From the IMG/VR virus record IMGVR_UViG_3300040751_002893, positions 1-64,000 of that record: 64,000 nucleotides of DNA; one strand, 5' to 3'. The notes beneath the pieces are model-generated. The model made no database searches. It saw nothing but the letters and a program-made list of their open reading frames with translations, and was not told where the DNA came from. Made by a program: the position numbers and the translations under genes. Positions within the stretch are counted from its first letter, which is position 1. Each line of letters opens with the position of its first letter. Source of the stretch: a virus. This document shows positions 1 to 63,408 of the stretch, one piece after another.

Positions 1-1
1 A

Positions 2-16283: not shown

Positions 16284-16290
16284 TGTTATC

Positions 16291-17217
16291 TCACGTTGTA
16301 TATACCGAGTCACTTAGAATATGCTCGCTACCAGGTATTAAGTCTGAATCTAAGTAATTGATTGTTTGTATTATTGAATTGAGAGACAATCCAAGAGCCT
16401 CAGATAAATTCGTTATACTATCTTGAGTAAACTTAGAAAAAGGTGGTGAACCTGCTGTTATTATTGCTAAAGCGCCGTTTATAATTGTTAGCTGAGTATT
16501 GATATCAACCAACTGTTTATAAACTTTTCTATTAACTTCTTGTTGCCCTTTAAGATATTCAATAAGCCTATTACCTAAAACCATAGGATGGAGTTCTTGG
16601 TTTCCAACCTGCAGTTCAATAACTTGGCCTTCAAGTCTTTCGCCTAAACAGTTTGTTTCTCCAACACCTCTCTCAAAACCTTCGAAGTTTCCACGACCAC
16701 AATAGATTCTAACCTTCTCTCGGCCAATTAGTCTCACATGGTCTGCTTTTGCTGCAACTGCTGACTTATTAATAGACACTGGCCCGCCAGATGGTTTGAG
16801 GCCAAAATACATATCAATATCTTCAGCTTTTTGAGTTATATAAACTCTTGCTGCGTCTGAATGGAACATTGGGTCAACGTATTCTATGCCGGCTAATGGT
16901 TCTTTATTTTTTTTTCTATTATTTGCCATAGTGAGTTGACCACGACCAGCGACCAAGTCAATCATACCACATTCAACTGAACCTGCTCCTCCGTGGCCGC
17001 TTGCCCAAGAAGAGTTTCTATCTCTACCAAATACCAAAAACGCATTATGATTACCGGAACGAATTTTTTCACAAGGAGCTTTATTAAATCCCGGAATCTT
17101 CTCGTCTGAGTTTGAGCAGAAAAATCTTCCAACACCTTTTTCCAATTCTTCTTCTGTGAACTGGTTCATGGCGTTTTCTCTATTTATTGTTTTATTTAAG
17201 TATTCTTTTGTTGGCAT
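16291..17217 (-). CDS. Probable baseplate hub/spike-related protein
   Basis: 308 aa ORF; IDLVAGR, DAARVYITQK, KADHVRLIGRE beta-rich motifs; position in baseplate module. Confidence 0.45.
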   Translation of the reverse strand: MPTKEYLNKTINRENAMNQFTEEELEKGVGRFFCSNSDEKIPGFNKAPCEKIRSGNHNAFLVFGRDRNSSWASGHGGAGSVECGMIDLVAGRGQLTMANNRKKNKEPLAGIEYVDPMFHSDAARVYITQKAEDIDMYFGLKPSGGPVSINKSAVAAKADHVRLIGREKVRIYCGRGNFEGFERGVGETNCLGERLEGQVIELQVGNQELHPMVLGNRLIEYLKGQQEVNRKVYKQLVDINTQLTIINGALAIITAGSPPFSKFTQDSITNLSEALGLSLNSIIQTINYLDSDLIPGSEHILSDSVYTT

Positions 17218-49778: not shown

Positions 49779-50019
49779 TTGTATATCTCCTTGAAACTCG
49801 GAAATTTTTTCCCGATTTTTTTTTACACCTTAATTAGTCCTCCACTACATAAAGAGCCCACCCCCTTAAAAACCCAAATCTGGAAATTTTCTGTGTGTGG
49901 CGCGGGTGTATCTGGCCGCCGGCCGAAAAGCTAGGTTCTAAGCCACTTATTTCAAATCGGTATGCTCTAGGGGCAGGAGGAGGGGGACCCCCCCCTGCGC
50001 GAAAACGCGCTTTGAACCT

Positions 50020-50541
50020 TTATTTTTTTCGGCGGCCAAAAAGCGTTCTGTCTTTGGGTGCGATGAAAACGTCGTTACAAGCTACGTTATCGTGGTTGCG
50101 GTATTGCACTTCACCGAAGAGCGCGCGATAGTGACGTAGATAGTGCTCATTCACCTTGACCGAATAGGTAGACACCCACTGCCAGTTCCTAGTAGCGTAG
50201 GACTTGAATAGGCCACGAAGAGCCATGCGGAGGTCATGGCGGATACGAGAAAACTTGTCACCCGCTGCGGCCATGGTCTCCTTACGGGGCACGTAGGTAG
50301 GGTCGACGAGGAGAATGGAGGTCATAAGCCGACTTTCGATGGTCTCCCAATACTCGTCACAGGCAGCGTAGACGGTATCTAGGTCGGACTGTGCGTAGAC
50401 TTTGTGCCTCAAACCTACATTTTGCCACACTTGATATGCGGTCATCTTGTGGAGGTTGCCGCTGTGCGCTGATACTGTGTGCGTGTGCTTGATGTATTGA
50501 ACGGACTTGAGAGGGATAAAGAGAGGATTGATTGTTTTCAT
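50020..50541 (-). CDS. Hypothetical early-region protein
   Basis: 173 aa ORF, higher GC than neighbours. Confidence 0.55.
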   Translation of the reverse strand: MKTINPLFIPLKSVQYIKHTHTVSAHSGNLHKMTAYQVWQNVGLRHKVYAQSDLDTVYAACDEYWETIESRLMTSILLVDPTYVPRKETMAAAGDKFSRIRHDLRMALRGLFKSYATRNWQWVSTYSVKVNEHYLRHYRALFGEVQYRNHDNVACNDVFIAPKDRTLFGRRKK

Positions 50542-50594
50542 AGGTAGATCCTAGGTTATGGAGTAAGTAAGTGAAAAGGTAGGTTGGAAGCGGC

Positions 50595-50963
50595 TTATTG
50601 ATCGAGATCGAAACCATCTTCCATGAGGTCAGCAAGAACATCTTCTGGGCAATCTTCAAAAAGCTCCTTTGTACTTGCCTTTTTGCTCTTGCGCTTTTTA
50701 GACTTAGAAGCTGGTTTATCGTAGGTTCCATCATCAATCTGGCGCATAGCGATTTCCATATTGAGTTCTTCGATACCCTCAGCAAGGTCGTTGTATCGCT
50801 GGTTGCTCGCATTGATACGTTCTACCTGTGTTTTCGAAAGACCGTTAAAGTCAGCGATCGTCCAGTCAGTGCGCATACGACGCGCATTGAACGGATCATT
50901 GTCATGAGGACAAACTTTGTCCAGTTGGAGGTGGCAAGAACAAGAAAAGTAACGAATAGACAT
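50595..50963 (-). CDS. Hypothetical protein with N-terminal CxC...CxH (SWIM-like) motif
   Basis: SCSCHLQLDKVCPH; AGGAG RBS. Confidence 0.6.
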   Translation of the reverse strand: MSIRYFSCSCHLQLDKVCPHDNDPFNARRMRTDWTIADFNGLSKTQVERINASNQRYNDLAEGIEELNMEIAMRQIDDGTYDKPASKSKKRKSKKASTKELFEDCPEDVLADLMEDGFDLDQ

Positions 50964-51047
50964 ATTGTCTCCTATAGTGAATGTTACAGTATATAAACAG
51001 AAAAAAAGTGAAAAAAGGACAGGTTTTTGGTGAGAGTCTCGGACAGT

Positions 51048-51461
51048 TTATGACCGCACATTTTTTGGTCTCTCCATCTCAAAAGTCAGTTTGTCCATAA
51101 CTGAAACAAGGTGGATTTGAGCGGTTGCAAGGTTCGCACAAGGGATACGAACCCATTGGGTTTTGTCGACGTCTACATCGATTTCCCAACCTTCGATAAT
51201 GTAGTTACAACCTGTGTCTTTGATACGACCCCATACACGAGTGTGCTTTGAAGCACCGTTAGAGCGCATTGTGTTCACCCAAACGCTGTGAGAAGGGCCA
51301 AAGCCGCGTGATTTGGTGATAGATGGGGTTGTAAGTGCGTTATTGGACATAGTGTCTCCTGTGTTGTTAGAAAGTGAGTTAGAAAGTGTATTTTGAGCCA
51401 TGTGGCCTCCAGTGTTGTTAGAGAGGTGGTTATTGAAAAGTACGAAGTGATCAAGTCTCAT
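51048..51461 (-). CDS. Hypothetical protein with three in-frame RBS+ATG starts
   Basis: ATGs at 51461, 51401, 51350, each preceded by GGAG. Confidence 0.6.
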   Translation of the reverse strand: MRLDHFVLFNNHLSNNTGGHMAQNTLSNSLSNNTGDTMSNNALTTPSITKSRGFGPSHSVWVNTMRSNGASKHTRVWGRIKDTGCNYIIEGWEIDVDVDKTQWVRIPCANLATAQIHLVSVMDKLTFEMERPKNVRS

Positions 51462-51672
51462 GTGATCTCCTGAAAAGGTAGGTTAAAGGTGGGTTTATTC
51501 AAAAAGAGAAAGGAAATAGAAGAGGCCGATTGAGCCGATAAAAGCAAGGAAAAAAGAAGTGATAGCAATAAGCATTTTTTGTCTCCGGGTTGTTTTGATT
51601 ATACTATAATATAACATGGTGAAAAGGGTCAAGTCAAGGTCTCGGACAGTTTGTGACCGGACAGTTTGTGTC

Positions 51673-51873
51673 CTACCATACGAGCCAGTCATATTGGCGA
51701 ACAAGCTCTTCAGTTTGGCACTGATCCAAATCATAGGATAAAACTACGTTTTCAAGGGATTGAGCGAACTCTGGTTCTGCGCTTTCTTCAAGCTCGGAAA
51801 CCAAGGTTTCAAGTGCTTTTTCGATGAGATCCCACTCTTCGGTGGTGAAATAGTTGTTTATGTTCTGAAGCAT
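51673..51873 (-). CDS. Small acidic hypothetical protein
   Basis: GAGG RBS; promoter with TTGACA at 51951-51956. Confidence 0.55.
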   Translation of the reverse strand: MLQNINNYFTTEEWDLIEKALETLVSELEESAEPEFAQSLENVVLSYDLDQCQTEELVRQYDWLVW

Positions 51874-52013
51874 AAATCCTCTGGGAAAGAAAAAAAAATT
51901 TTGAGTGTCGAACCATCCGACATCTATAATATGACCTGTTGGGAGGCTTTTGTCAATATGGGCGGACAACTTTTGACCGGACACTTTTTGTCCGGGCTCC
52001 GGAGCCTTTAATT

Positions 52014-52145
52014 TGAGTTATGAAAAGTTTTTTTGGCACGCTTTTTGCAATAGAATCATTTTGAGTTATGACAAATAAAATTGGCACGGATCTTGCAAGG
52101 GATATATTTTGAGTTATGAAAAGTTTTTTTGGCACACTTCTTGCA
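52014..52145 (+). promoter_or_regulatory. Tandem array of three 48-bp units, each TGAGTTATG-N11-sigma54 (-24/-12) site
   Basis: TGGCACG-CTTT-TTGCA (52034), TGGCACG-GATC-TTGCA (52082), TGGCACA-CTTC-TTGCA (52130). Confidence 0.85.
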
Positions 52146-52156
52146 AGGCCGATTTT

Positions 52157-52175
52157 GAGAATGAGAATCAATATC
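52157..52175. promoter_or_regulatory. Fur-box-like sequence
   Basis: GAGAATGAGAATCAATATC, 16/19 match to GATAATGATAATCATTATC. Confidence 0.55.
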
Positions 52176-52262
52176 AATAGGATCTCCGGACAAAAAATGA
52201 CCGCAAGGAGTTTTATCTCCCTACGGGAGCGACCTTTATTCAAGGCGCACGCAAGGCCGTTT

Positions 52263-52640
52263 TTAGAGCATGCGACGCATGGTCATTTCGACACTCTCAA
52301 AGCCTTTGAGCTTGAATGTGGTGTAGGTTGGATCATGCTGGATGATGGTGTAACCATCTTGATCTGTGAAGATTGCAAAGTCATCCTCCGCGCTCAAGTG
52401 TGCCTCATTCTGTGCTACCTGTTGCTCACGTGTGAGGTTATTGTATTCCATACACAAGGCCATGAGCCGCTGGTGCTGGAAGTCGCTCACTGGGAGAGCC
52501 ATATACACCTTTACGAAGTGCGCATTGGAGATAATGTTCTTATGGCCAATGAGAGAAGAGTCGAGAGTATAGAGAAAATCAGTAGTTGGGAGAGTAGAGT
52601 ATTTCATAGTAGTCTCGTTGTTAGTGTTAGATGTAGTCAT
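52263..52640 (-). CDS. Hypothetical protein
   Basis: Start corrected to MTTSNT (alternative MKYSTL); ORF-track extension overlaps another gene. Confidence 0.55.
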   Translation of the reverse strand: MTTSNTNNETTMKYSTLPTTDFLYTLDSSLIGHKNIISNAHFVKVYMALPVSDFQHQRLMALCMEYNNLTREQQVAQNEAHLSAEDDFAIFTDQDGYTIIQHDPTYTTFKLKGFESVEMTMRRML

Positions 52641-52710
52641 GTGTATATCCTGTGGAGGGGTGTAGGGTAGGGGGGTAGTAGTGTAGTATGTAGGGTGGTA
52701 GGCTAGTGGG

Positions 52711-53136
52711 CTACTTGTCGCTGGGGTGATCCATACGACCTGTGCTTGCATAGCCCCAGTTGTATCCGGTGTTTCCATCCGGTGCATAGCCATGCTCTCG
52801 GATACGCTTGTTGTCGGTGATCTCAATGCTTCGCACAATGAGGTTCCCATAGGGATCTTTTGCATAGCCTGTATTGAACTGCGCCATGAGCATGTTGAAC
52901 TGGGCTGGGGTAAGCTCAATCTCTACGGAGGAAGCGTTCTTAAGGCAGATGGTGAGTGTGAGGTCACTCTTCTGAGAACGCATTACATTGATGTTGTACT
53001 CCATGAGTACGGTATCGACTTGCTCTTGGGTGAGGCCATAAGTCTCTTGGACTTCTTCGATAGCGTTGGTTGCAAAGTCACCTCGGTTGATGAGCTTGGT
53101 GAGGAGGTTGAGAGAGTTAAAAATGATTGTGGACAT
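52711..53136 (-). CDS. Hypothetical protein
   Basis: GGAG RBS before MSTIIF; boxed promoter at 53253-53280. Confidence 0.65.
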   Translation of the reverse strand: MSTIIFNSLNLLTKLINRGDFATNAIEEVQETYGLTQEQVDTVLMEYNINVMRSQKSDLTLTICLKNASSVEIELTPAQFNMLMAQFNTGYAKDPYGNLIVRSIEITDNKRIREHGYAPDGNTGYNWGYASTGRMDHPSDK

Positions 53137-53282
53137 AGTGTCTCCGAATAAAGGTTTTAGGGGGTTTGGACTTCGGAATGATTCAGCAGTCTTGAAACTC
53201 ATTATCTCATTCGTTTTCGTCATATATATAATATAAGCTGTTTTGTTGGTCTTGTCAAATGTGGTGGACAGTTTTTGTCCTA

Positions 53283-53594
53283 CTAGTGTTCTAAGGGGAA
53301 TCTGTGGAGGTTTTGATACATGGTTCGGATCTCTCGTATCTGAGCTTTGTCAAGGCCATAGTAGTAAGCCTGAGTCAAGAGAGAACCATAGAAAGTATCG
53401 TCACCATAGTGAAGATCTTCTACAATGTTGTCAAAAGCTTCGATTGTAGCAGTCTCATAGAGGTCTTGCATACACTCCTTGTTGAAACAGTGCATACAAA
53501 CTACCTTATCGTCATTGTTTCGGAAGTGTCCAATGTCATCCTCCGGAATGAAGGTAGAGCAATCTGAGCAGTGAATGAAAATATTGTGAGCCAT
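53283..53594 (-). CDS. Zinc-finger-like hypothetical protein
   Basis: CSDC...CMHC; GGAGG RBS; boxed promoter upstream. Confidence 0.65.
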   Translation of the reverse strand: MAHNIFIHCSDCSTFIPEDDIGHFRNNDDKVVCMHCFNKECMQDLYETATIEAFDNIVEDLHYGDDTFYGSLLTQAYYYGLDKAQIREIRTMYQNLHRFPLEH

Positions 53595-53734
53595 GAGGCC
53601 TCCAAAAGAATGTTGTTGTCGGTCGTTGCCGATACTTATAGCTTATAGCATTGGAACGATTTTGTCAAATGTGGTGGTCAAAATATGTCCGGTCTGGCTC
53701 TGAGCGTAGCTCAAACGGAGGTTGGGGTCGGATT

Positions 53735-54096
53735 TGAGTTATGTATATTTTTTTTGGCACACTTCTTGCAAACACGAAAAAAGTCTTGACACGTTTTTAT
53801 CTCGCTCTGGGAGCAACCTAAACTCACGCTATCTGTATGGCCGTTTTTGGAGCTTTGAAAAGTCTTGACGCAAAGCTCATTTGAGTTATGGTAAGAAGTT
53901 TTGGCACACCTTTTGCAAGGGATCAAAATGAGAATGAGAATCAAAATCAAAAAGGATTGGGCGCATACGCAAAAAAGCTCTTAAAAAGAGCTTGGAAAAA
54001 ATAGGCGATAATCGGAAAGTTTACGGAGTAAAAGGCGTTTTACATGTGGGAGCACTAGTTAGGTATAGGTGCGTGTGTTTTGGCATGGTTCTTGCT
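53735..54096 (+). promoter_or_regulatory. Second non-coding block with three sigma54 sites and a Fur-like box
   Basis: TGGCACA-CTTC-TTGCA (53755) and TGGCACA-CCTT-TTGCA (53902), both 20 bp after the start of TGAGTTATG; TGGCATG-GTTC-TTGCT (54081); GAGAATGAGAATCAAAATC (53930-53948). Confidence 0.8.
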
Positions 54097-54197
54097 CTGA
54101 TACGTCCACATATAAGGCACATTTTCAATACATCCATAACGCACATCCAACAAACATTTTCATAAAGTTTATTTCCTCCACCTTCTAGCCCATTCGT

Positions 54198-54422
54198 TTA
54201 CTTGCGTTTGGGCTTTTTTGCACATAGCTTTCCACACGCTCTAGCGGGCTTGGGATTGGCTAGCTGACTATGCACAAGCTGACGTTCTCTCATATCCATG
54301 AGGACACCAACAAGCTCAAGAGCTTCCAATAGCGTCATATCGCCTACGGCTTTATCAAGTCCGTTATCAATGATTGTGAGGGTTCTATCTATCAATGTGT
54401 CTAGTGTGTTCTGTGTATTCAT
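54198..54422 (-). CDS. Hypothetical protein
   Basis: AAGGA RBS. Confidence 0.55.
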   Translation of the reverse strand: MNTQNTLDTLIDRTLTIIDNGLDKAVGDMTLLEALELVGVLMDMRERQLVHSQLANPKPARACGKLCAKKPKRK

Positions 54423-54445
54423 AGGAAGTTCCTTGGTTTTCGGTT

Positions 54446-54475
54446 GGGGGTAGGGTAGTAGGGTAGTAGGTTAGG
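54446..54475 (+). repeat. G-rich intercistronic repeat, copy 1
   Basis: GGGGGTAGGGTAGTAGGGTAGTAGGTTAGG, identical to 57884-57913. Confidence 0.8.
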
Positions 54476-54485
54476 GGATAGGATA

Positions 54486-54674
54486 CTAGCATGTGAAGTC
54501 AATCAGTTCCATGTCAAGATCAAACTCGTTCTGATAGTGATCGAACATATCTTGGTCTATTACTTCGTAACACTCATCTTCCTTGTTATGGATAAAGAAA
54601 GCAACGTAGTTGTAAGATACAGTGTCAAAGTAAAGAGCAGCGTTCTTATAAAAAGAGAAAGTTTTATTTTTCAT
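54486..54674 (-). CDS. Small acidic hypothetical protein
   Basis: GGAG RBS. Confidence 0.6.
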   Translation of the reverse strand: MKNKTFSFYKNAALYFDTVSYNYVAFFIHNKEDECYEVIDQDMFDHYQNEFDLDMELIDFTC

Positions 54675-54761
54675 GTGTTCTCCGATTGTTCAGTTTGATG
54701 GTGAGATATGAGAAGGTGATAGATACGGTTAGTTGTATGAGGGTTAGCGTCAATAGAGGGT

Positions 54762-55049
54762 TCATTTCAGCACCTGCTTGCAGATTAGAGGGATAGCGTA
54801 TTCTTCATACGCATGTAGCATTTCTTGGAGGTTGCGATACGCTTGTCTCTTGCGTTGGATCTCTACAAGATCATTCACATAAGAACCATCGGGATTCTTT
54901 TGGTCTTGTAGCTCGTCAATCTCAATGTATAGGCAGTTCAAGTCTTTGTATAACTTTGAGAGGGTAGCTACTTCTGCGAAGTATTCGTATCGGGTGTCCA
55001 TAGTTCCGTTTCGGTATGCTTGTAGTGCAAGGTCAAGATAGTTTGTCAT
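54762..55049 (-). CDS. Hypothetical protein
   Basis: GGAG RBS; boxed promoter at 55100-55127. Confidence 0.65.
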   Translation of the reverse strand: MTNYLDLALQAYRNGTMDTRYEYFAEVATLSKLYKDLNCLYIEIDELQDQKNPDGSYVNDLVEIQRKRQAYRNLQEMLHAYEEYAIPLICKQVLK

Positions 55050-55128
55050 GTTGTCTCCAGTTGTTCGGTACATCTATAATATAATCGGTTCTCAGCTATT
55101 GTCAAGTGTGGTGGACAAAATGTGTCCG

Positions 55129-55509
55129 TTAGTCCAGTTCCAGTTCGCATTGGTCATTGAGTTCATCACGTACAGTCTCGTAACACTCATGGATGACTTC
55201 CCATCCTTGGACATAAACCCACATGTTGCAGACAGCCTCTGGAGAGGATAGGTCTGTGTGGACTTCTCCGAAGTTGTGTTGCTCATACTCTTGAACGTCA
55301 CCGATCATATCGAAAGCAGAATCGCCCATCCATTGCTTAGCTTGGTAGTGACCAATGATGTAATAGTCTCGGTTAAAGATTTGGTCATGCAAGTCTGAAA
55401 CATAAGCGTCTCGGAAGTCTTGGTTGTCCATGTATTCTGCGATCTCACGAAGTCGGTCAAGGCAAAAGTCTTTGATTTCTTTTTGGTTTTGTTGGTAAGT
55501 GAATGACAT
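55129..55509 (-). CDS. Acidic Ocr-like (DNA-mimic / antirestriction) candidate
   Basis: DLHDQIFNRDYYIIG.YQAKQW...EYE..NFGEV.TDLS.PE; D/E-rich; own boxed promoter. Confidence 0.5.
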   Translation of the reverse strand: MSFTYQQNQKEIKDFCLDRLREIAEYMDNQDFRDAYVSDLHDQIFNRDYYIIGHYQAKQWMGDSAFDMIGDVQEYEQHNFGEVHTDLSSPEAVCNMWVYVQGWEVIHECYETVRDELNDQCELELD

Positions 55510-55584
55510 ATTGTCTCCGTTGGTTGGGTTATATTAGTAATGTATCTGATTGGGGTGGAAAAGTCAAGGACAGAAAATGTCCGT

Positions 55585-55746
55585 TTACACTGGTGTGGCT
55601 CTGAAGTCTTTTGCATTGCGTGGTGCTTTCTTGCGTGCCTTGCTGATAGCATCCTGTTTGGATGTGGCTTGCACTCGGATGAATCCGTACTGCGCTCCAA
55701 AGTTTGCGCCTGTTGTATTGTATGTGTAGTCTACGAAATAAGTCAT
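55585..55746 (-). CDS. Small hypothetical protein
   Basis: GGAG RBS; V.A.SK.DAI.KAR motif. Confidence 0.55.
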   Translation of the reverse strand: MTYFVDYTYNTTGANFGAQYGFIRVQATSKQDAISKARKKAPRNAKDFRATPV

Positions 55747-55760
55747 GTTGTTCTCCGTTG

Positions 55761-56012
55761 TTAGCATGAATATGGTTGGTTGTTGTCTTGTTGTTTTCGT
55801 GGTGTGCAGTGACCGTTCTCTATAAGAGCGTCTGCTGTTCTATGGAACCATCCTTGTAGCTGATAGGCCATCCCAGTGTCGATAAGCACTTGCCAAGCTT
55901 GGATGTATTGCTCTTGGCTCTCGGCTTGATAGACACCCTCAGCGATCATGATTGCATCAAAGGTGGGCATTTCTTCTTCAAAGGGTAGTTCAAGTTGTAT
56001 CATTTTAGACAT
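55761..56012 (-). CDS. Conserved small phage protein
   Basis: AWQ.LIDTG.AYQLQGWF.RTA..LIE.G.C motif. Confidence 0.7.
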   Translation of the reverse strand: MSKMIQLELPFEEEMPTFDAIMIAEGVYQAESQEQYIQAWQVLIDTGMAYQLQGWFHRTADALIENGHCTPRKQQDNNQPYSC

Positions 56013-56033
56013 ATTGTCTCCGTTGTTTGGGTT

Positions 56034-56204
56034 CTAGTTATTTGGTTTGAGTTGTACCATATCGGCTTTAACAAAAGGTTTCCATCTGGTCGAATAACCT
56101 GCTACATTTGCTGTTCTTTTAGAACGTTTGTACCATCTGACACCTTCAAAATAGAAGTATGATCGTACTGGGATTTGACTGAATGAAATATGTTTGTTGG
56201 TCAT
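56034..56204 (-). CDS. 56-aa basic protein (below ORF cutoff)
   Basis: Read by hand: MTNKHISFSQIPV...; GGAG RBS and boxed promoter. Confidence 0.6.
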   Translation of the reverse strand: MTNKHISFSQIPVRSYFYFEGVRWYKRSKRTANVAGYSTRWKPFVKADMVQLKPNN

Positions 56205-56257
56205 AGTGACTCCGTTGGTTGGTGATGTTTATAATGTATCTCGTTTGGTTGGAAAAG

Positions 56258-56464
56258 TCAAGGACACTTTTTGTCCTTTTCTATAAAGTCCACAAGGTCA
56301 ACGTCAACCTTGACAATGCGTGAACCTGTTTCGCAGTTAGGGAAATGCACAGTCAGTTCTGTGCTAGGGTAAAGCCACCCTGTGGATCTATAGTCCGTAA
56401 CTACGCCTATTCCAAAGAACTTGTGCTGTTTTGTTTTTTTACGCTTTACTAGTTTACCAATCAT
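56258..56464 (-). CDS. Small SH3/KOW-like protein (MIGKLV...)
   Basis: GGAG RBS, boxed promoter. Confidence 0.6.
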   Translation of the reverse strand: MIGKLVKRKKTKQHKFFGIGVVTDYRSTGWLYPSTELTVHFPNCETGSRIVKVDVDLVDFIEKDKKCP

Positions 56465-56516
56465 TTTAACTCCGTTGTTGGTTGGTGATGTTTATAATGT
56501 ATCTCGTTTGGTTGGT

Positions 56517-56672
56517 TTAGTCAAGGACATTTTTTGACCGTTTGTCTATTTTCCCTCTGCAAGCCATCTTGTTGGCCTGTTTTTTCTTGTCTCCATGAGA
56601 TCCTGAGCCTGAGCCTTGACGTTTGATATGCTCAAGATGTGTGAGATTGCGAGGTTGTAACTTCTTTTTCAT
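56517..56672 (-). CDS. 51-aa basic peptide
   Basis: Read by hand: MKKKLQPRN...GSGSHGDKKKQANKMACRGK. Confidence 0.5.
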   Translation of the reverse strand: MKKKLQPRNLTHLEHIKRQGSGSGSHGDKKKQANKMACRGKIDKRSKNVLD

Positions 56673-56680
56673 GGTTCTTC

Positions 56681-56860
56681 CTAGTTTAAGTCGGTTGGAT
56701 CAAAACAAGCTTTGATAAGCTCCATGAGAGCCTGTTCTGCTATCTCTCGGAGTTGTGGTGGGGTTCCATCTATATTCAAGGCTTGCAAAGCAAGATTGAT
56801 GGATACAAAGGTTTCGTGGTCTTTTCCATCAAAGATGGAGGATAAAGGCATTTTGTTCAT
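56681..56860 (-). CDS. 59-aa hypothetical protein
   Basis: Read by hand; AGGAG RBS. Confidence 0.55.
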   Translation of the reverse strand: MNKMPLSSIFDGKDHETFVSINLALQALNIDGTPPQLREIAEQALMELIKACFDPTDLN

Positions 56861-56869
56861 GGTTGTCTC

Positions 56870-57127
56870 CTATTGAAGAGGTTCTATTGTGTTGCTTATG
56901 TCGTTTAGGGTGTCGATAGACAAACCAGTAACGAATTCATATTCAGTACAGGTTCGGTAGCCACCCATACCGTTTGGGGTTTGTCTTGTGGTATGGGAAA
57001 GATAGACTACTGGCTTGCCATTTACGAGGATTAGATCGCCTTTCGTAAGGCTTTCAGCCCACATGTTCTTACCATGGTTTGGATAGTGTTTGTGGAAGTT
57101 CTTTGCGAAGTTAAGCATGGTTCTCAT
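56870..57127 (-). CDS. Hypothetical protein
   Basis: GGAG RBS, boxed promoter 57158-57207. Confidence 0.65.
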   Translation of the reverse strand: MRTMLNFAKNFHKHYPNHGKNMWAESLTKGDLILVNGKPVVYLSHTTRQTPNGMGGYRTCTEYEFVTGLSIDTLNDISNTIEPLQ

Positions 57128-57251
57128 TTTGTCTCCGTTTCAGTTGGTGATGTTAGTAATGTAACCCATTGAGAAAAAAAGTCAAATCGGGAGGACAGAA
57201 TATGTCCGGCAAGGGTTCGTTCCCTTTAGGGAACGGATTGAGGAACTGGTT

Positions 57252-57287
57252 TGAGTTACGTAAACTTTTTTTGGCATAGATATTGCA
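57252..57287 (+). promoter_or_regulatory. Single TGAGTTACG-N11-sigma54 site module
   Basis: TGGCATA-GATA-TTGCA at 57272-57287. Confidence 0.7.
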
Positions 57288-57329
57288 AGGGGTGTCTCTA
57301 CTCTGAAACTGCCCCTCGCGCTATCTCAT

Positions 57330-57578
57330 TCACCGTTTGACTTTGATATGGTAGCTTGAACCTCGTTTATTGACATAGAGTGTCTCAATACCGTCCACAT
57401 GCTCGTCACGTGCGATCGCATCAAGTAGGTGTTGCACGTCAAACTGTGTAACAGTTTCCTCGCTTATGACGTTCGCTACGAAGTCATGAAGATCTCCATC
57501 CCAATCACCCCAAAGGTTCTCTATGAAGTCAAGAGCCTCTTTCACTGCCTTGATGGTGACTGTTGTTTTATCCTTCAT
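57330..57578 (-). CDS. Hypothetical protein
   Basis: GGAGG RBS before MKDKTT. Confidence 0.6.
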   Translation of the reverse strand: MKDKTTVTIKAVKEALDFIENLWGDWDGDLHDFVANVISEETVTQFDVQHLLDAIARDEHVDGIETLYVNKRGSSYHIKVKR

Positions 57579-57698
57579 TTTTGCCTCCGTAGTGAAAGGT
57601 GTCGTACTTGGTTGTGCGCTTGATCTCCTTTGGAGACAGGACACGCACTTGTGTTCCCTTACGTGTGGTGATAATCACCTTGTCCATTGTGTATTTAC

Positions 57699-57869
57699 TC
57701 ATGTATCCTCCTGTGGTTGTGTGAGTTGTGTGTAGTAGAAGCGCAGACTGCTCTCGCTTATGTGAGCAAAGCAATCGGGAGCGTCAATGTATCTGAGTGT
57801 GTAGAATCCATCTTTGACCGCAGTGCATACGCATATGCCGCTCTCGCTCTTCCATAGTGTGCCGACCAT
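57699..57869 (-). CDS. Small beta-barrel-like protein (MVGTLWK...)
   Basis: Read by hand; AGGAG RBS. Confidence 0.55.
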   Translation of the reverse strand: MVGTLWKSESGICVCTAVKDGFYTLRYIDAPDCFAHISESSLRFYYTQLTQPQEDT

Positions 57870-57883
57870 AGTTTCTCCTTGGT

Positions 57884-57913
57884 GGGGGTAGGGTAGTAGG
57901 GTAGTAGGTTAGG
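57884..57913 (+). repeat. G-rich intercistronic repeat, copy 2
   Basis: Identical 30-mer to 54446-54475. Confidence 0.8.
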
Positions 57914-58073
57914 CTATCTTGGTCATGGATCTCTCTACGAAGAAATCACGAAGTGTCACATGACCTAGACTGGGTGTTGTAAACACATAGTACAACGCCC
58001 CACCTGTTGTATAGTATTTGTCTTTGAGAATGTATATCTTGCCTTTTCGACATTTCCATAGTGTACCAATCAT
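57909..58073 (-). CDS. Small beta-barrel-like protein (MIGTLWK...)
   Basis: Read by hand; ATGA coupling to upstream ORF. Confidence 0.55.
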   Translation of the reverse strand: MIGTLWKCRKGKIYILKDKYYTTGGALYYVFTTPSLGHVTLRDFFVERSMTKIA

Positions 58074-58252
58074 TCTTCTTCCGTTGGTGTTAAGGGTTCA
58101 AAGTATCTATCCAGTTCTCGTAGTCCTTTGACTACCCATGTGTCTCCGTTTGTTATACAAACCATGGTGAAGTAGGGTATGTGTGCATAGTCTATGCTTA
58201 TGCAAGCGTATATGTGCTTACTGTGTCTTGATCTATACAACATCCCTATCAT
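58070..58252 (-). CDS. Small beta-barrel-like protein (MIGMLYR...)
   Basis: ORF track; follows VWA gene. Confidence 0.55.
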   Translation of the reverse strand: MIGMLYRSRHSKHIYACISIDYAHIPYFTMVCITNGDTWVVKGLRELDRYFEPLTPTEEE

Positions 58253-58260
58253 GTTATCAC

Positions 58261-59499
58261 CTAGTCTATCGCTATGACACGTTCATTAGTTGTGAAGTAA
58301 GGGTTCTCCTTGCCTCGTTGGTCAGTCATCCACATGCGTTGGCACTTGCTGGCTATCGGCTTTGGAGCCTCCATATCTGTGAGGATGATGTGACCATCGA
58401 AACCGTTCTCATTGACGTATCGTGTCGGAGCGTCAAAGCATGTGCCGCCACACTTGACACGTTCCCATGTCTTGCGTTCACCTTTCTTCCAAGTGTAGAC
58501 AAGACTCTCGTCCACTTCAGTATCAAAAGGCACAACGGTAAACTCTGCAAGGCTTGATAGGCTATTGAGTTCTGCGAAGAATGAGGCAAGCATTTCATCC
58601 GATACAGAACCAGACTGGTCAATGCTGATAGCAATCTTGGCTTGACGTGTAACCTTGCGACCGGCATGAATGTATGGAAACCTACGGTTAAGTCTACGAA
58701 CAGTCGAACGCTTATTGCTACGCTGTGAAGTCTTGATGAAGTATCTCAGAACCTTGCGCCAGTCAATCTTGGGAGTGATAGCATCCATGATCTGCTTACG
58801 AACGTCTGCCGATACAGATCCCCAGCCTTGACCGCTTGAAGCATCCTTGGCGGCTTTCTCCATAGCATCTTTCAAACGCTCTTTGGCCATAGCCTTTGTC
58901 TCTTCGTCAACGTCACCCCAACCGCTATGGTCGTCAAGAACGTGGTCACCAAGAGAAGAGCCTTGGCCTTGGCCTTGTGATGGATCGCCTTGGCCTTGAC
59001 CGCCTTGACCGTCACCTTGGCCTTGACCATCGTCTTTCTTGAACTGCTCATCTTCTTCAATAATCTTAAGATAAGCCTCAGCAGATAAACCGACAGGATA
59101 GTCTGCGAAAGGTGTATCGGCTTTGCCGGGTATACAGCCACCATCGGGCAACATGTCAGCAATATGACTGTTGATTGCAAGGTCTGTCGCAACGTTCCAC
59201 TTCATAGACATACCCTCAGCCGGAAGTCGTGTGGTGACATGCTCAAAGATGATGTGGTAAAACTCGTGCATTAGAACACCAAGCTTTTGCTTGTCTGTAA
59301 GGCTAGCCATGAACTCTGGATTGTAAAGCATCTCAAACTGTGCTGACTGTGGATTGATACGGACACCAGCAGTTGGAATGTGCTTGGATGGTGCTTTGTG
59401 AATACGTCTTGAAAGACTTGCGAAGAACGGTTCTTGTTGTAGCAAACGGAAAGTGTGCATGTTCAAGTCAAACTTTTCTGTTGTTTCGTTATCACTCAT
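58261..59499 (-). CDS. HEXXH metallopeptidase-like + VWA domain protein (DUF2201-type), MoxR partner
   Basis: HEFYH, WNVATDLAIN, Gly/Gln linker, IDQSGS MIDAS, GGT.F, ILTD. Confidence 0.88.
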   Translation of the reverse strand: MSDNETTEKFDLNMHTFRLLQQEPFFASLSRRIHKAPSKHIPTAGVRINPQSAQFEMLYNPEFMASLTDKQKLGVLMHEFYHIIFEHVTTRLPAEGMSMKWNVATDLAINSHIADMLPDGGCIPGKADTPFADYPVGLSAEAYLKIIEEDEQFKKDDGQGQGDGQGGQGQGDPSQGQGQGSSLGDHVLDDHSGWGDVDEETKAMAKERLKDAMEKAAKDASSGQGWGSVSADVRKQIMDAITPKIDWRKVLRYFIKTSQRSNKRSTVRRLNRRFPYIHAGRKVTRQAKIAISIDQSGSVSDEMLASFFAELNSLSSLAEFTVVPFDTEVDESLVYTWKKGERKTWERVKCGGTCFDAPTRYVNENGFDGHIILTDMEAPKPIASKCQRMWMTDQRGKENPYFTTNERVIAID

Positions 59500-59755
59500 T
59501 GGAATCTCCTTGTTGGGGTGATATAGATAACTTATCCGATTGGGATGGTTTTGTCAAACGTGGTGGACAAAAACTGTCCGGTAGTTTAGAAAGCTCTATT
59601 CTGTCTAGGTTGGTGTGCGCTTCCTCTATCTTTTGAGCTAGGGATTTGACTTCCAAAGGCTCCGACAGTTCTTCAAGCTCTGGTGGAAACTCAATCTTTT
59701 GTCTTTGTATTGCGTAATACGTTATATTGCTGTATTGTAGCTTTGGTCTACTCAT
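59492..59755 (-). CDS. Hypothetical protein; 3' part overlaps a boxed promoter
   Basis: GGAGG RBS. Confidence 0.45.
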   Translation of the reverse strand: MSRPKLQYSNITYYAIQRQKIEFPPELEELSEPLEVKSLAQKIEEAHTNLDRIELSKLPDSFCPPRLTKPSQSDKLSISPQQGDSNE

Positions 59756-59957
59756 TGGTTCCTCCTGTCTTGAAACCCATAGGTGCTTTCTTCTTGGGCT
59801 TTTCTGCCTTGGGAAGTGCTTGTGGTGGCATAGCCATACCCATAAGGGCTTGCAAGGGTATTCCCATAGAGTTGCCTTGTGGTTGCATAGCCATGATTAG
59901 CTTGGATAATAGCTCGTCTGATATGTTCAGTGTAATATTAATCTCGTTATTGCTCAT
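59748..59957 (-). CDS. Hypothetical protein
   Basis: AGGAG RBS; C-terminal PMGF. Confidence 0.55.
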   Translation of the reverse strand: MSNNEINITLNISDELLSKLIMAMQPQGNSMGIPLQALMGMAMPPQALPKAEKPKKKAPMGFKTGGTNE

Positions 59958-60288
59958 TGGTTTCTCCTGCATTGTCTACAATGCTTTTAAGTAGTTGTTG
60001 CTTGTGGGTTGGTAGTAAGGACTTTTGGTGGTTTAGGGTTTCCACGTCGGGCATTAGGAACAAAGACCAGTCTTTGAGAGTCTTGGATAGTTGCCTTGCC
60101 TGTTTCAATGTGATGTTGTGTCTGATGGAATAGCCTGTGGACATGTGTGATAATGTCCATGACTTTTCATCCTCTTTACGATGGACATAGAAAGGGAAGT
60201 CATTTCCGTAGGAACCATCACAATATGTCCAAACTGGATGATTATCTTCAAATGTTCGTATCTTGAATGTACCTTTGCGTATTCTCAT
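59947..60288 (-). CDS. Hypothetical protein
   Basis: GGAG RBS; W.LSH..TG motif. Confidence 0.6.
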   Translation of the reverse strand: MRIRKGTFKIRTFEDNHPVWTYCDGSYGNDFPFYVHRKEDEKSWTLSHMSTGYSIRHNITLKQARQLSKTLKDWSLFLMPDVETLNHQKSLLPTHKQQLLKSIVDNAGETNEQ

Positions 60289-60362
60289 AGGTGTCTCCAT
60301 AGAAAGGGATTATAGTCTCCTTGTTTCAAGGCACAAGGAGCCAAAGCCAGCGAGGTGAAATG

Positions 60363-61424
60363 TTAGTTACCAGCGTTTAGGATACCGACAACATAGTCTT
60401 GGATGGAAGTGCCGTCTACTTCAATCGCCCAAAGTTTAGCGATATTGTAGGTTGATTCGTCAGTTTGAGCCATGGACTGCCACAGAACCATGACGATCTC
60501 TGATGGAAGTTGCAAGAAATATTTTGCAAGGTTATCAAGACGAGTGTCTGATAGACGTTCTGCAAAGATGTTCTTTGCTTTCATCTTTTCGACCATAGCA
60601 TTGTGGTCATTGATCTTCCAACCTTTGATCTTGTCGAACTTACCATCATCTAGAAGATCTTCGATAGTGACTTGACGATCGTACTTGTCAAGGAAGTCTT
60701 TGAAAGCTACTGCACCCTCAAAGCCGATGAAAGAGCAAGCGATATGGTAGGTTACAGATGAACCCTCAATCTCGTTACCCATTCCAGACAAAGTCTGAGA
60801 CAATCGTTCCCAAGAACGTCTTGATGGGTAAACCTTGTTAGGCTCGTAGTCATCATTGTGTTCAAGATGGTTGTGGTTCTGATTGATGAAGTCCCAGATC
60901 TCTTGTGCTACGTTACCCTTAGCCCAATCAAGCCAATCTTCTACCGTAGGTTCTACGTCAAAGACGGTATAGCGATCAAGCTCTGCTGGATCCATCTCAC
61001 CTACTTGGTATTGAGAACCATGCTCTCCACCGTTTACACAAGCAAAGATAAGGGTTTCGGGATGCAGACTGCGACCGGCAATCTTGCGGCTATCACAAAG
61101 CTCAAAGATACCTTGGCGGACTTCAAGCGTAGCTCGGTCTACTTCGTCAAGGAAGAGGACGACAGGAGTATCACAAGCAGTCTTGAACCACTTTGGTGGA
61201 CACCACTCAGTTACATCATTGTCTGATTGCTTTGGCAAGCCAAGCAAGTCACCCTCAGTCATTTGGCTAGCACGTCTTTCGACAACAGGCAAACCGAGTT
61301 CTTTGGCTTTTTGGTATACGATGGTAGATTTACCGATACCATGCCGACCACGAACGAGGACAGGAAACTTTGCGTTAAGGATAGGGTTGATTACGTTAGA
61401 GAATGTTTTGAAGTCAATAGCCAT
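60363..61424 (-). CDS. MoxR/AAA_5-type AAA+ ATPase
   Basis: GRHGIGKS Walker A, LFLDEVDRA Walker B, MDPAELDR, PSRRSW. Confidence 0.92.
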   Translation of the reverse strand: MAIDFKTFSNVINPILNAKFPVLVRGRHGIGKSTIVYQKAKELGLPVVERRASQMTEGDLLGLPKQSDNDVTEWCPPKWFKTACDTPVVLFLDEVDRATLEVRQGIFELCDSRKIAGRSLHPETLIFACVNGGEHGSQYQVGEMDPAELDRYTVFDVEPTVEDWLDWAKGNVAQEIWDFINQNHNHLEHNDDYEPNKVYPSRRSWERLSQTLSGMGNEIEGSSVTYHIACSFIGFEGAVAFKDFLDKYDRQVTIEDLLDDGKFDKIKGWKINDHNAMVEKMKAKNIFAERLSDTRLDNLAKYFLQLPSEIVMVLWQSMAQTDESTYNIAKLWAIEVDGTSIQDYVVGILNAGN

Positions 61425-61475
61425 GGGAGGCCTCCGTTTGTTTTGTTGTTAGTTCTTCGTTATGAAGATGTTTAT

Positions 61476-61519
61476 ATTATAACTAGGTTAGGGTTTGTTG
61501 TCAAGGACATTTTTTGTCC
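61476..61519 (-). promoter_or_regulatory. Consensus sigma70 promoter with abutting palindromic box
   Basis: GGACAAAAAATGTCC|TTGACA-17bp-TATAAT. Confidence 0.9.
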
Positions 61520-61601
61520 GAAGTTTATTTTTTTTCTTGTTGGTGGGTTCTCGTTTACATTTTTGTCTCCGTCAGTTGCTGATGTTTATAATGTATCCTG
61601 T

Positions 61602-61751
61602 TCACTTCGATTCGTCAAGGACATTTTTTGTCCGCTCATCTTTTTTTCTTTTGGGCTGGCTATAGGTTGCCCACTGATCAAGCAGAAATGCAGTCATAAG
61701 GACTATCCCTGTGTTTATAAGGAACATGTAAAAAGCATTGTGATGAATCAT
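61602..61751 (-). CDS. 49-aa membrane peptide
   Basis: Read by hand: MIHHNAFYMFLINTGIVLMTAFLL...; own boxed promoter and GGAG RBS. Confidence 0.55.
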   Translation of the reverse strand: MIHHNAFYMFLINTGIVLMTAFLLDQWATYSQPKRKKDERTKNVLDESK

Positions 61752-61822
61752 GTTGTTCTCCGTTGTTGATGTTTATAATCTATCCGATTGAGTTCAAAAA
61801 GTCAAGGACATTTTTTGTCCGT

Positions 61823-62077
61823 TTATCCAATATGGTACTTGCGTAGTATTGGGAGGTCGTTTTCTTCTATCTCTTGTGCATAATATAACCGAAAACCACG
61901 ATGGGTATATGGCGATATGTACACTCTGAGATCTTCGTCATAAGCAAGATCTTCTTGTCCAGACCATGCTTTTAGCACTTCATGTTCATTTGATGTGTCT
62001 TTCATGTAGATAATAGCTTTATCCCAATACTCATGATCTCCGTCATAGATCGTTATGGTTAGTAAATGATATTTCAT
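61823..62077 (-). CDS. Hypothetical protein
   Basis: GGAGG RBS; boxed promoter at 62103-62146. Confidence 0.65.
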   Translation of the reverse strand: MKYHLLTITIYDGDHEYWDKAIIYMKDTSNEHEVLKAWSGQEDLAYDEDLRVYISPYTHRGFRLYYAQEIEENDLPILRKYHIG

Positions 62078-62302
62078 GTTTCCTCCGTTGTTGGATATTA
62101 GTAATGTATTGTGTTTTATCTCAATTGTCAAGGACATTTTTTGTCCACATTCTATCAAACTCTTTCTTAGTGAATATGAGATAGCGATCTTGTACTTTCA
62201 CATGAACAAAATACTCATGTACAAGATGCTCTACAAGCTTGACTATGATACAAGATACGTTTGGGTTATCTTGTCTTGTGTATATTTCTCCGACTTCCAT
62301 GT

Positions 62303-62491
62303 CTATTCCTCCTTATTTACTTTTTGTAGCATACCCCTAGGGAACGTGAATATGCGATTGTCTTGGAAGATGTGTATGTCATACACACCCTCACGCCTTT
62401 CACACACAACCACGCCTATTATGTTCTCCAACCCATACATGTGTATAAGGTCGCCCACCAGTAGGGTACCAGTACGCATGTTTATTTCCAT
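62303..62491 (-). CDS. Small KOW-like protein
   Basis: LLVGDLI...GVVV. Confidence 0.5.
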   Translation of the reverse strand: MEINMRTGTLLVGDLIHMYGLENIIGVVVCERREGVYDIHIFQDNRIFTFPRGMLQKVNKEE

Positions 62492-63408
62492 GCGTTAATG
62501 TGGACTACAAGGTTTGCAGGTCGCCAATCGGACTTCATACCGTTTTGTAATTGCTCATAGGTTCTCTTCTTGACAAGAGTTCCAAAGGATTCTTTGTAGG
62601 AAGTAATCCACTCTTGGGGTAGGGGAGTAGGGGAGTTGGTGATTACAGACACCAATGAACAAGCTGGTGCACCATTCCAAAAGGAATGTATTCTACCGTT
62701 CTCTCCGACAGTGTTAAACTTCGCATGAAGATTATCAAGTCGTCTTGTCTCTCCATCTACCAACACACAAACTTCTATCGGAGAATGAGCGTCATTATGG
62801 TTCTTGCTCATACCAGAGAATACATTTACAGTATTCCAGTTTATCTTGGTGATGATACCAGTGCTTTTTACTGTTTCTCTATTGTTCCAGCTACCCTTTT
62901 CATAAGTGACTTGAACACAAGCACCAACAGATAGACCACCATCCAGTACAAGGTCTTTGTAGGCCGCGTGTCGCCAGTTCTCATTGGCTTTGTAACAGTC
63001 TTTGAGAAACTGTTCCATGGTCGGACAAGTGCGTCTTGTATGGTCTTTGCCACCACAAAAGCCACATGTTCTATTGACTGCCTTGCGTTTGACTTTGTGT
63101 TCAAAGTTGAATCCACGTTCTTTCTGAACCTTGTATGCTTTGCGACAGTTACGGAACCATGCCGCAAGAGCATTGTTGGCTACATCATCAATAAGAGGAT
63201 CAAAAGCCGCAGTGTGCCATGTAGCATAGTTGTAGCCACGTCTGATAAGATTACCATCTTTGTCTTTGGGAATCTCCAGTCTTGATAAGAAGTTCTCCCA
63301 ATCACCTTTGACGTGTGGGCATTGGTATTGGTTGTGTCCTGTTTCTCGGCAATAGCCACATGTTGCTTTACTTCTGTTTGATGTGTTCTTATTTTCATGA
63401 ATATTCAT
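62482..63408 (-). CDS. Protein with two CCHC zinc knuckles
   Basis: CGYCRETGHNQYQC and CGFCGGKDHTRRTC; GGAG RBS; boxed promoter 63457-63500. Confidence 0.75.
   Translation of the reverse strand: MNIHENKNTSNRSKATCGYCRETGHNQYQCPHVKGDWENFLSRLEIPKDKDGNLIRRGYNYATWHTAAFDPLIDDVANNALAAWFRNCRKAYKVQKERGFNFEHKVKRKAVNRTCGFCGGKDHTRRTCPTMEQFLKDCYKANENWRHAAYKDLVLDGGLSVGACVQVTYEKGSWNNRETVKSTGIITKINWNTVNVFSGMSKNHNDAHSPIEVCVLVDGETRRLDNLHAKFNTVGENGRIHSFWNGAPACSLVSVITNSPTPLPQEWITSYKESFGTLVKKRTYEQLQNGMKSDWRPANLVVHINAWK

Follow-up and report, generated by a model that had tools for sequence, protein, structure and literature searches.

The 64,000-nucleotide stretch analysed here (the window) spans positions 1-64,000 of the 89,683-bp IMG/VR virus record IMGVR_UViG_3300040751_002893 (G+C content 38.8%; estimated completeness 49%), and between its early genes it carries repeated copies of a composite unit in which a -24/-12 element matching the sigma-54 (RpoN) promoter consensus follows a conserved upstream box. 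These units face against the genes, which lie on the minus strand almost throughout; a survey of open reading frames (ORFs) in the record placed the long ones on that strand. Our tentative reading, to which we give slightly less than even odds, is that the units are genuine sigma-54 promoters that depend on an activator and are held in check by repressors, and that the antisense RNA they would make enters the neighbouring early cassette at its 3' end. Their anatomy suggests switchable promoters of antisense RNA more than it does passive decoys.

The first-pass annotation of this DNA had listed seven plus-strand matches to TGGCAYR-N4-TTGCW, three of them in tandem with a 48-bp period, and had noted TGAGTTAYG ahead of six of these matches, each time at a 20-bp offset. 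All of this was recovered. Seven matches were found at these positions (Table 1) against 0.07 expected, with at most one in any of 100 shuffles; the 48-bp period of the tandem starting at 52034, 52082 and 52130 is exact; and the upstream motif was found six times at the given offset against 0.28 expected. Beyond the window, three further plus-strand sites at record positions 70842, 70931 and 71015 bring the whole record to ten forward sites and no reverse site. The site at 54081 is probably a chance match outside the system. It has no box and departs from the 11-base core TGGCAC-N5-TTGCA at two positions, and core matches with up to two mismatches occur in the window at chance level (15 found versus 14.4 expected). 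Nor is it conserved in a 141-kb relative, although the surrounding sequence is. For these reasons we restrict the robust window set to six sites, all with zero or one mismatch to the core and with the -24 GG and -12 GC at exact spacing. The unit of the family can be written as AGTTAYGTAAA-N7-TGGCAY-N5-TTGCA. As apparent resemblances to other motifs we note a TyrR-box-like TGTAAA-N6-TTGGCA, PilR-like TGTCC repeats and an OmpR-like GTTACA. A different role for the box, as the start codon of a 14-codon mini-ORF within the 48-bp units, was rejected, since several units have ACG in place of the ATG and other arrays are not multiples of three.

We found the same unit in many related phages. A stricter form of the composite pattern occurred in five other viral contigs and a looser form in 22 stretches, and the phage itself was present in estuary and seawater metagenomes from 14 studies. 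The strict unit with the extended box was present in at least 118 marine metagenome contigs, some of them TARA scaffolds, yet was absent from 185,579 prokaryote genomes (one per species), and we therefore regard the box as phage-specific. Across 53 unique sites from 16 records, AGTTATGTAAA, TTGGCA and TTGCA were near-invariant whereas the spacer and flanks varied, so that the -24/-12 spacing on which the original proposal hinged is kept among relatives; an alignment of array D from nine contigs gave the same conservation footprint. As far as alignment can tell, this pattern of kept sigma-54 positions and a free spacer is a sigma-54 information profile. A match in L032, located within a baseplate-like gene, was treated as chance. 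The lone matches in L029, L031, L033, L035 and L039, where the stricter sigma-54 pattern is absent, were dropped from the counts.

The orientation of the units is conserved as well. In the 141-kb relative (78% complete), which is colinear with the record at 70-88% identity and differs in cassette order, 12 of 13 sites oppose the genes and one runs along them. We then surveyed orientation and spacing in 80 of the at least 118 metagenome contigs (L043-L122), where sites were opposite to the ORFs in 62 contigs, on the same strand in two and ambiguous in 16 short ones. Arrays of one, two, three, four and five sites numbered 43, 21, 35, 4 and 1, and spacings within arrays clustered at 47-52, 56-59, 66-71 and 82-89 bp; because the contigs are related, these counts measure conservation and not independent events. 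The spacing classes lie about 10 bp apart, mostly near half-integer helical turns, which may simply reflect a small number of ancestral array types.

Along the gene strand, each array comes after the end of one gene and ahead of the next early promoter. Array A illustrates this order: gene X is followed by a minus-strand terminator, a Fur-type box, three sigma-54 units, two GGACA-type palindromes and the sigma-70 promoter of the next gene. Array B follows the same grammar with two units, a Fur-type box and a minus-strand terminator. When folded against shuffles, the terminator between array A and gene X was strong as minus-strand RNA (z = -2.33, ending in a U run) and unremarkable as plus-strand RNA (z = -0.23), its two G-U pairs turning into C-A mismatches on the plus strand. 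Because this terminator would work on the minus strand only, RNA from array A would be expected to run into gene X. Unit C lies 43 bp from the stop codon of the gene that it faces, and its -12 element contributes to the 5' arm of a conserved stem-loop. Within this stem-loop, 91% of cells were paired in 18 sequences and three of the eight pairs were changed on both sides (five cells); among 500 shuffles, the cell count was reached by none and the pair count by 11.

The absence of a credible plus-strand gene after the arrays, on which the first description had also relied, held up in the comparison with the 141-kb relative. In all seven downstream regions, substitutions at the third position of the minus-strand frame dominated, with counts at codon positions 1, 2 and 3 of 9, 5 and 25 in gene 57330-57644, 7, 7 and 29 in another region and 22, 24 and 41 in the first region. 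None of five larger plus-strand ORFs had a Pfam match, and one of them (62076-62498) overlaps small minus-strand genes with the usual early promoters. Protein-coding plus-strand genes downstream were ruled out on the basis of the substitution counts and the Pfam searches. Discrete small RNAs at arrays A and B were likewise rejected, since the downstream plus-strand RNAs have no terminator and fold no better than shuffles, the only exceptions being hairpins that belong to minus-strand terminators. The ten small flanking genes had no Pfam or PHROG family above the cut-off.

We next considered where transcription from the units would begin. In E. coli, according to the available part of PMC4591121, 19 bp separate the centre of the 17-nt sigma-54 motif from the start downstream, and applying this rule puts the predicted start 10 nt past the end of the 16-nt site. 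In array A, the predicted start of each unit then falls about 2 nt ahead of the box of the following unit, and in 48-bp arrays generally the TTAYGTAA core of the next box begins about 6 nt beyond the preceding predicted start. Many units carry a palindromic operator that begins 8-13 bp past the site, that is, at about the predicted start point. These operators are of three types: Fur-type boxes, the palindrome TAACAAATTTGTTA, which was found at +8 to +13 past 22 unique sites, and GGACA-N5-TGTCC, which was found at +11 past a few other sites in some relatives. Fur-like 19-mers occurred at only two loci in the 89.7-kb record, both 11-12 bp beyond a sigma-54 site. When Fur-type matches were scored as a 15-mer with up to two mismatches to TGATAAT-N-ATTATCA or TGAGAAT-N-ATTCTCA, 19 of 109 unique arrays had one 5-30 bp past their last site, at an offset of 10-12 in 11 cases. 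In the 604 kb scanned there were 63 Fur-type clusters, of which 22 fell within the 26-bp window after sites, and only three matches were found in the 120 bp upstream of sites. Fur recognition is described by a 19-mer consensus and by a 7-1-7 reading, and Fur-repressed promoters have the box over the promoter or start; by sequence alone, the arrangement seen here is that of a Fur-regulated promoter. Since a passive binding site would not need operators at its start point, their placement favours a regulated promoter.

Palindromes were also seen at other promoters. GGACA-N5-TGTCC abuts the -35 hexamer of many early sigma-70 promoters (window positions 51968-51997, 55568-55582, 57192-57206 and 61505-61520, among others). 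A further palindrome, TAACAAATTTG(T/C)TA, occurs at record positions 70868-70881 and 71075-71088 (L008 1527-1540 and 1734-1747), once at the predicted start of unit D1 and once in the spacer of the perfect plus-strand sigma-70 promoter TTGACA-17-TATAAT (record 71065-71093) in the region of array D, and it resembles an operator common to both promoter types.

Table 1. Features of the sigma-54-like arrays and their surroundings (window positions unless stated otherwise)
Feature	Position	Strand	Remarks
Array A, three box + sigma-54 units	52014-52145 (sites 52034-52049, 52082-52097, 52130-52145)	+	exact 48-bp period
Unit B1	53735-53770 (box 53735, site 53755-53770)	+	
Unit B2	53882-53917 (box 53882, site 53902-53917)	+	
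Seventh site, probable chance match	54081-54096	+	
Unit C, single	57252-57287	+	perfect palindromic box core TTACGTAA
Array D, three units, outside the window	record 70822-71030	+	interleaved with sigma-70-type plus-strand promoters
Fur-type box GAGAATGAGAATCAATATC	52157-52175	+	11 bp past last array A site, at about the predicted +1; 3 mismatches to 19-mer consensus
Second Fur-type box GAGAATGAGAATCAAAATC	53930-53948	+	12 bp past site B2; 4 mismatches to 19-mer consensus
Sigma-70-type early promoter TTGACA-17-CATATT with two GGACA-N5-TG(T/A)CC-type palindromes	51928-51997	-	divergent from array A
Intrinsic terminator of gene 52263-52640	52201-52226	-	10-pair stem, then TCATTTTTTG
Early gene X, 125 amino acids, no family	52263-52640	-	array A points into its 3' end
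Terminator	53975-53993	-	AAGCTCTTTTTAAGAGCTT, then TTTTGCG
Early gene, 104 amino acids, no family	57330-57644	-	unit C points into its 3' end
Conserved stem-loop	57285-57319	not assigned	5' arm GCAAGGGG, which includes the -12 element; 19-nt loop; CCCCTYGC

Taken together, this arrangement suggests how the units might work. They would be -24/-12 promoters read by the host sigma-54 RNA polymerase that mark the 3' limit of early cassettes, either alone or stacked two to five deep, and fire backwards. Sigma-54 holoenzyme would be parked on them as a closed complex, and initiation would require an activating ATPase, which could be an enhancer-binding protein of the host or a phage factor. Further gating may come from proteins on the conserved box (core TTAYGTAA, at about -39) and on the palindromic start-point operator, which is Fur-type in window arrays A and B. 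Transcription would then cross the gene-strand terminator and enter the 3' end of the adjacent early gene, and the untranslated antisense RNA, together with convergent transcription, could damp or shut the adjacent early cassette in a particular host state, such as low iron. The sequences themselves establish the anatomy of the units, their conservation and orientation and where the operators lie, whereas binding by sigma-54, activation, the RNA and its effect are steps that we infer from this layout. We also entertain a more elaborate version, which as a whole we consider rather unlikely, in which poised sigma-54 stacks would act as a reverse switch with two keys and fire only when a host activator is on and the start-point repressor is gone (Fur in low iron, or other binders of the palindromes). 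The phage would in this way sense the nutrient state of its host and silence single early cassettes by convergent transcription, and as copies of the genome accumulate, the stacks would in addition sequester host sigma-54. We count the linkage of arrays A and C to the gene on their right in favour of working promoters. There, homology with the 141-kb relative starts at the sigma-54 unit and extends across that gene (for unit C, into gene 57330-57644), while the left neighbours are unrelated, and the gene X homologue of the relative likewise carries a sigma-54 array and Fur-type palindromes at its 3' end despite different neighbours. As precedents, sigma-54 sites in antisense orientation are bound in E. 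coli, as reported in the available part of PMC4591121, and phage YuA has the sigma-54-like promoter described below.

Several observations weigh against the units being activator-dependent promoters. Neither an enhancer-binding protein gene above the cut-off nor a sigma-54 gene was found in the record (49% complete) or the relative (78% complete); the best Sigma54_activat match in these two incomplete records, on a MoxR-like ATPase, scored 15.1 bits and was below the cut-off. No classical upstream activator site was recognised, only the conserved box at -39 and palindromes further upstream, and -39 is not the usual binding place of enhancer-binding proteins. Of 227 unique sites, 121 had none of the scored operator types, and tandem promoters 48 bp apart would obstruct each other if all were occupied. 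We identified no host, no close cultured relative and no relative in prokaryote genomes, and a host rpoN is therefore presupposed. A phage collection gave no nucleotide match and only distant protein matches (a structural protein and DnaE), the nearest Atlas clusters of GroEL and UvdE were mostly viral, and no psbA or sigma-70-family gene was found; the consensus sigma-70 promoters, GGAG ribosome sites and Fur-type boxes would fit a proteobacterial host. As for RNA, run X20 consisted, as did all four runs, of contigs, here lacking strand and ends, and these reached 23 of 30 bins without distinction between coding and non-coding parts; as DNA carry-over is possible, we draw nothing from the covered or uncovered parts.

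The first-pass annotation had offered three functions for gene-less sites, namely a sponge for host sigma-54, a roadblock between cassettes and a source of antisense RNA under a host signal. This proposal is supported in part, and the evidence favours the last option because the orientation is constant, the upstream box is fixed, many units have start-point operators and a roadblock is judged unlikely from E. coli. Under the roadblock explanation, stable but inactive closed complexes of sigma-54, stacked where each cassette ends on its 3' side, would, with no transcription of their own, stop read-through polymerase from occluding the next early sigma-70 promoter. This would explain why every array has a gene end or terminator on one side and the next early promoter on the other, why the arrays travel with the cassette that they close and why arrays C and D can do without a good gene-strand terminator in front of them, and by our estimate the shortest spacing class (47-52 bp) is about the smallest that permits side-by-side holoenzymes. 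However, arrays A and B are already preceded by good terminators, a roadblock requires neither fixed orientation nor a start-point operator, and among 85 E. coli genes containing bound sigma-54 sites, 3 were down-regulated, which does not exceed chance (available part of PMC4591121); we thus consider this explanation unlikely. The sponge, in which replicating high-affinity sites would titrate scarce host holoenzyme and shut sigma-54-dependent host responses, appears more doubtful still. The replicating pool would exceed the number of sigma-54 molecules per cell, every boxed site is a near-perfect consensus match, with 9-12 sites per genome, and the closed complex forms without an activator (available part of PMC4591121). 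Yet titration predicts no antisense orientation, fixed upstream box, start operators or linkage to one gene, and clustering in a few linkers is not an obvious design for it. More than number and affinity appears to matter in these arrays, with which titration as a side effect is compatible.

A reader other than sigma-54, such as a phage DNA-binding protein or a phage-modified polymerase, would reduce the consensus to partial mimicry or coincidence, or the units might serve mainly as homology patches for cassette shuffling; to this pair of ideas we give little credence. That no host was identified and that the strict unit was found in at least 118 metagenome contigs and in none of the prokaryote genomes searched would fit an unusual reader, but conservation follows the sigma-54 profile, with GG and GC fixed at exact spacing around a free spacer. 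Shuffling does leave traces at the arrays, and cassette order differs from that in the 141-kb relative. Seawater metagenome contigs include a variant that lacks one 48-bp unit (joint 52012 to 52061), and others show joints between arrays (52050 to 53883, 52164 to 53967 and 53870 to 52128) with the intervening cassettes lost or reordered. Given this copy-number variant and these inter-array joints in natural populations, the linkers also act as recombination patches, much as T4-type promoter-early stem-loop (PeSL) elements do in the available part of PMC4122927. Recombination requires similarity, though, and not this particular consensus, and a by-product would explain the traces equally well; we take recombination to be a consequence of repeated regulatory DNA and not the purpose of the arrays. 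Finally, gene-less tandem promoters might yield RNA that primes or opens a replication origin, as at the transcription-primed origins of T7 and T4. The array D block (record 70822-71094) is A+T-rich, repeat-rich and conserved in the family, and has three sigma-54 units and sigma-70-type plus-strand promoters and no plus-strand gene. We nevertheless regard an origin as highly improbable, with four or more array positions per genome, no initiator gene recognised beside the arrays and no clear GC skew switch at them, the skew change instead spanning a 12-kb island and residing in third codon positions.

This island of early genes, at about 50000-62000 of the window, has a G+C content of 43-45% versus about 37% elsewhere and a positive GC skew on the plus strand. 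At its third codon positions, G+C is 0.48 versus 0.33 and coding-strand skew -0.25 versus -0.05, so that the skew anomaly at 50-62 kb is a codon-usage feature; the same compositional island is present in the 141-kb relative. Antisense (plus-strand) RNA from it would be rich in G and poor in C, a bias of possible relevance to Rho. On the gene strand, leaders that are rich in C, poor in G and marked by CCCTAC-type repeats sit just upstream of some start codons (window 52641-52710 and 54423-54485; record about 71555-71635) and resemble Rho-loading or translation-enhancer sequences. In the 3' region after gene 54198-54422, beneath the chance match at 54081, a 12-codon minus-strand ORF (54125-54163), MKMFVGCALWMY, lies downstream of a strong GGAGG site and is kept at 12 codons in the 141-kb relative, where it reads MKVLFCGVLWMY. 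Elsewhere in the window, a minus-strand frame of at least 1986 codons fills the first 5.96 kb (1-5960) and runs off the contig end, and the next gene (9723-16313) has a product of 2196 amino acids. The phage encodes a DnaE-type polymerase, GroEL, ClpP, UvdE, PIN-PhoH and a MoxR-VWA pair, and the window contained no Rfam families or tRNAs.

Sigma-54 transcription has hardly been studied in phages, and in this estuary and ocean phage family the early programme would contain it as a conserved element present in several copies. If the units are real promoters, control of early phage genes would be tied to host signalling through activator ATPases and, probably, to iron through the Fur-type boxes, which would bear on how nutrient limitation shapes infection at sea. 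Because the elements are short and portable, the promoter, roadblock and sponge explanations could be separated by simple reporters, with or without a host in hand.

The supposition that phage arrays of this kind are undescribed agrees with the literature searched, where we found none, nor the combination of opposite-strand sigma-54 stacks, a phage-specific box, start operators and conservation across an abundant marine phage family. Sigma-54 promoters as such are textbook knowledge. Fur-repressed promoters are matched in that GAGAATGAGAATCAATATC in the window and TGAGAATGATTATCATTATCA in relatives fit the consensus and cover the predicted start; the present promoters would differ in being sigma-54-type and phage-borne, and many copies read TGAGAAT-N-ATTCTCA, a symmetric variant, so that the reader could be another Fur-family or a phage protein. 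The sigma-54 sites of E. coli, among them antisense-oriented ones mapped both between and within genes (available part of PMC4591121), share the -24/-12 consensus and spacing, face away from the nearest gene and would be expected to hold a poised closed complex, whereas those described here are phage-borne, come in arrays of up to five and have a phage-specific box at about -39 and often an operator at +1, with no enhancer site or activator found. A sigma-54-like promoter is already known from a phage: P015 of Pseudomonas phage YuA was confirmed by promoter trap and cap-selected long reads (available part of PMC10914365, citing Ceyssens et al. 2008). YuA likewise is a virulent phage that uses host sigma-54 beside sigma-70, but with a single mapped sigma-54-like promoter in that part of the source, compared with 9-12 units per genome set against the genes here. 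The closest likeness in cassette layout is to the T4-type PeSL cassettes, in which small early genes are split by a stem-loop and a near-consensus sigma-70 early promoter, and these linkers mark where insertions, deletions and reordering occur (available part of PMC4122927). The record has the corresponding elements, with terminators at 52201-52226 and 53975-53993, sigma-70 promoters, linker joints and reordered cassettes. The PeSL cassettes have no sigma-54 element in the available part of PMC4122927, whereas here a backward-facing sigma-54 array is set between the stem-loop and the early promoter.

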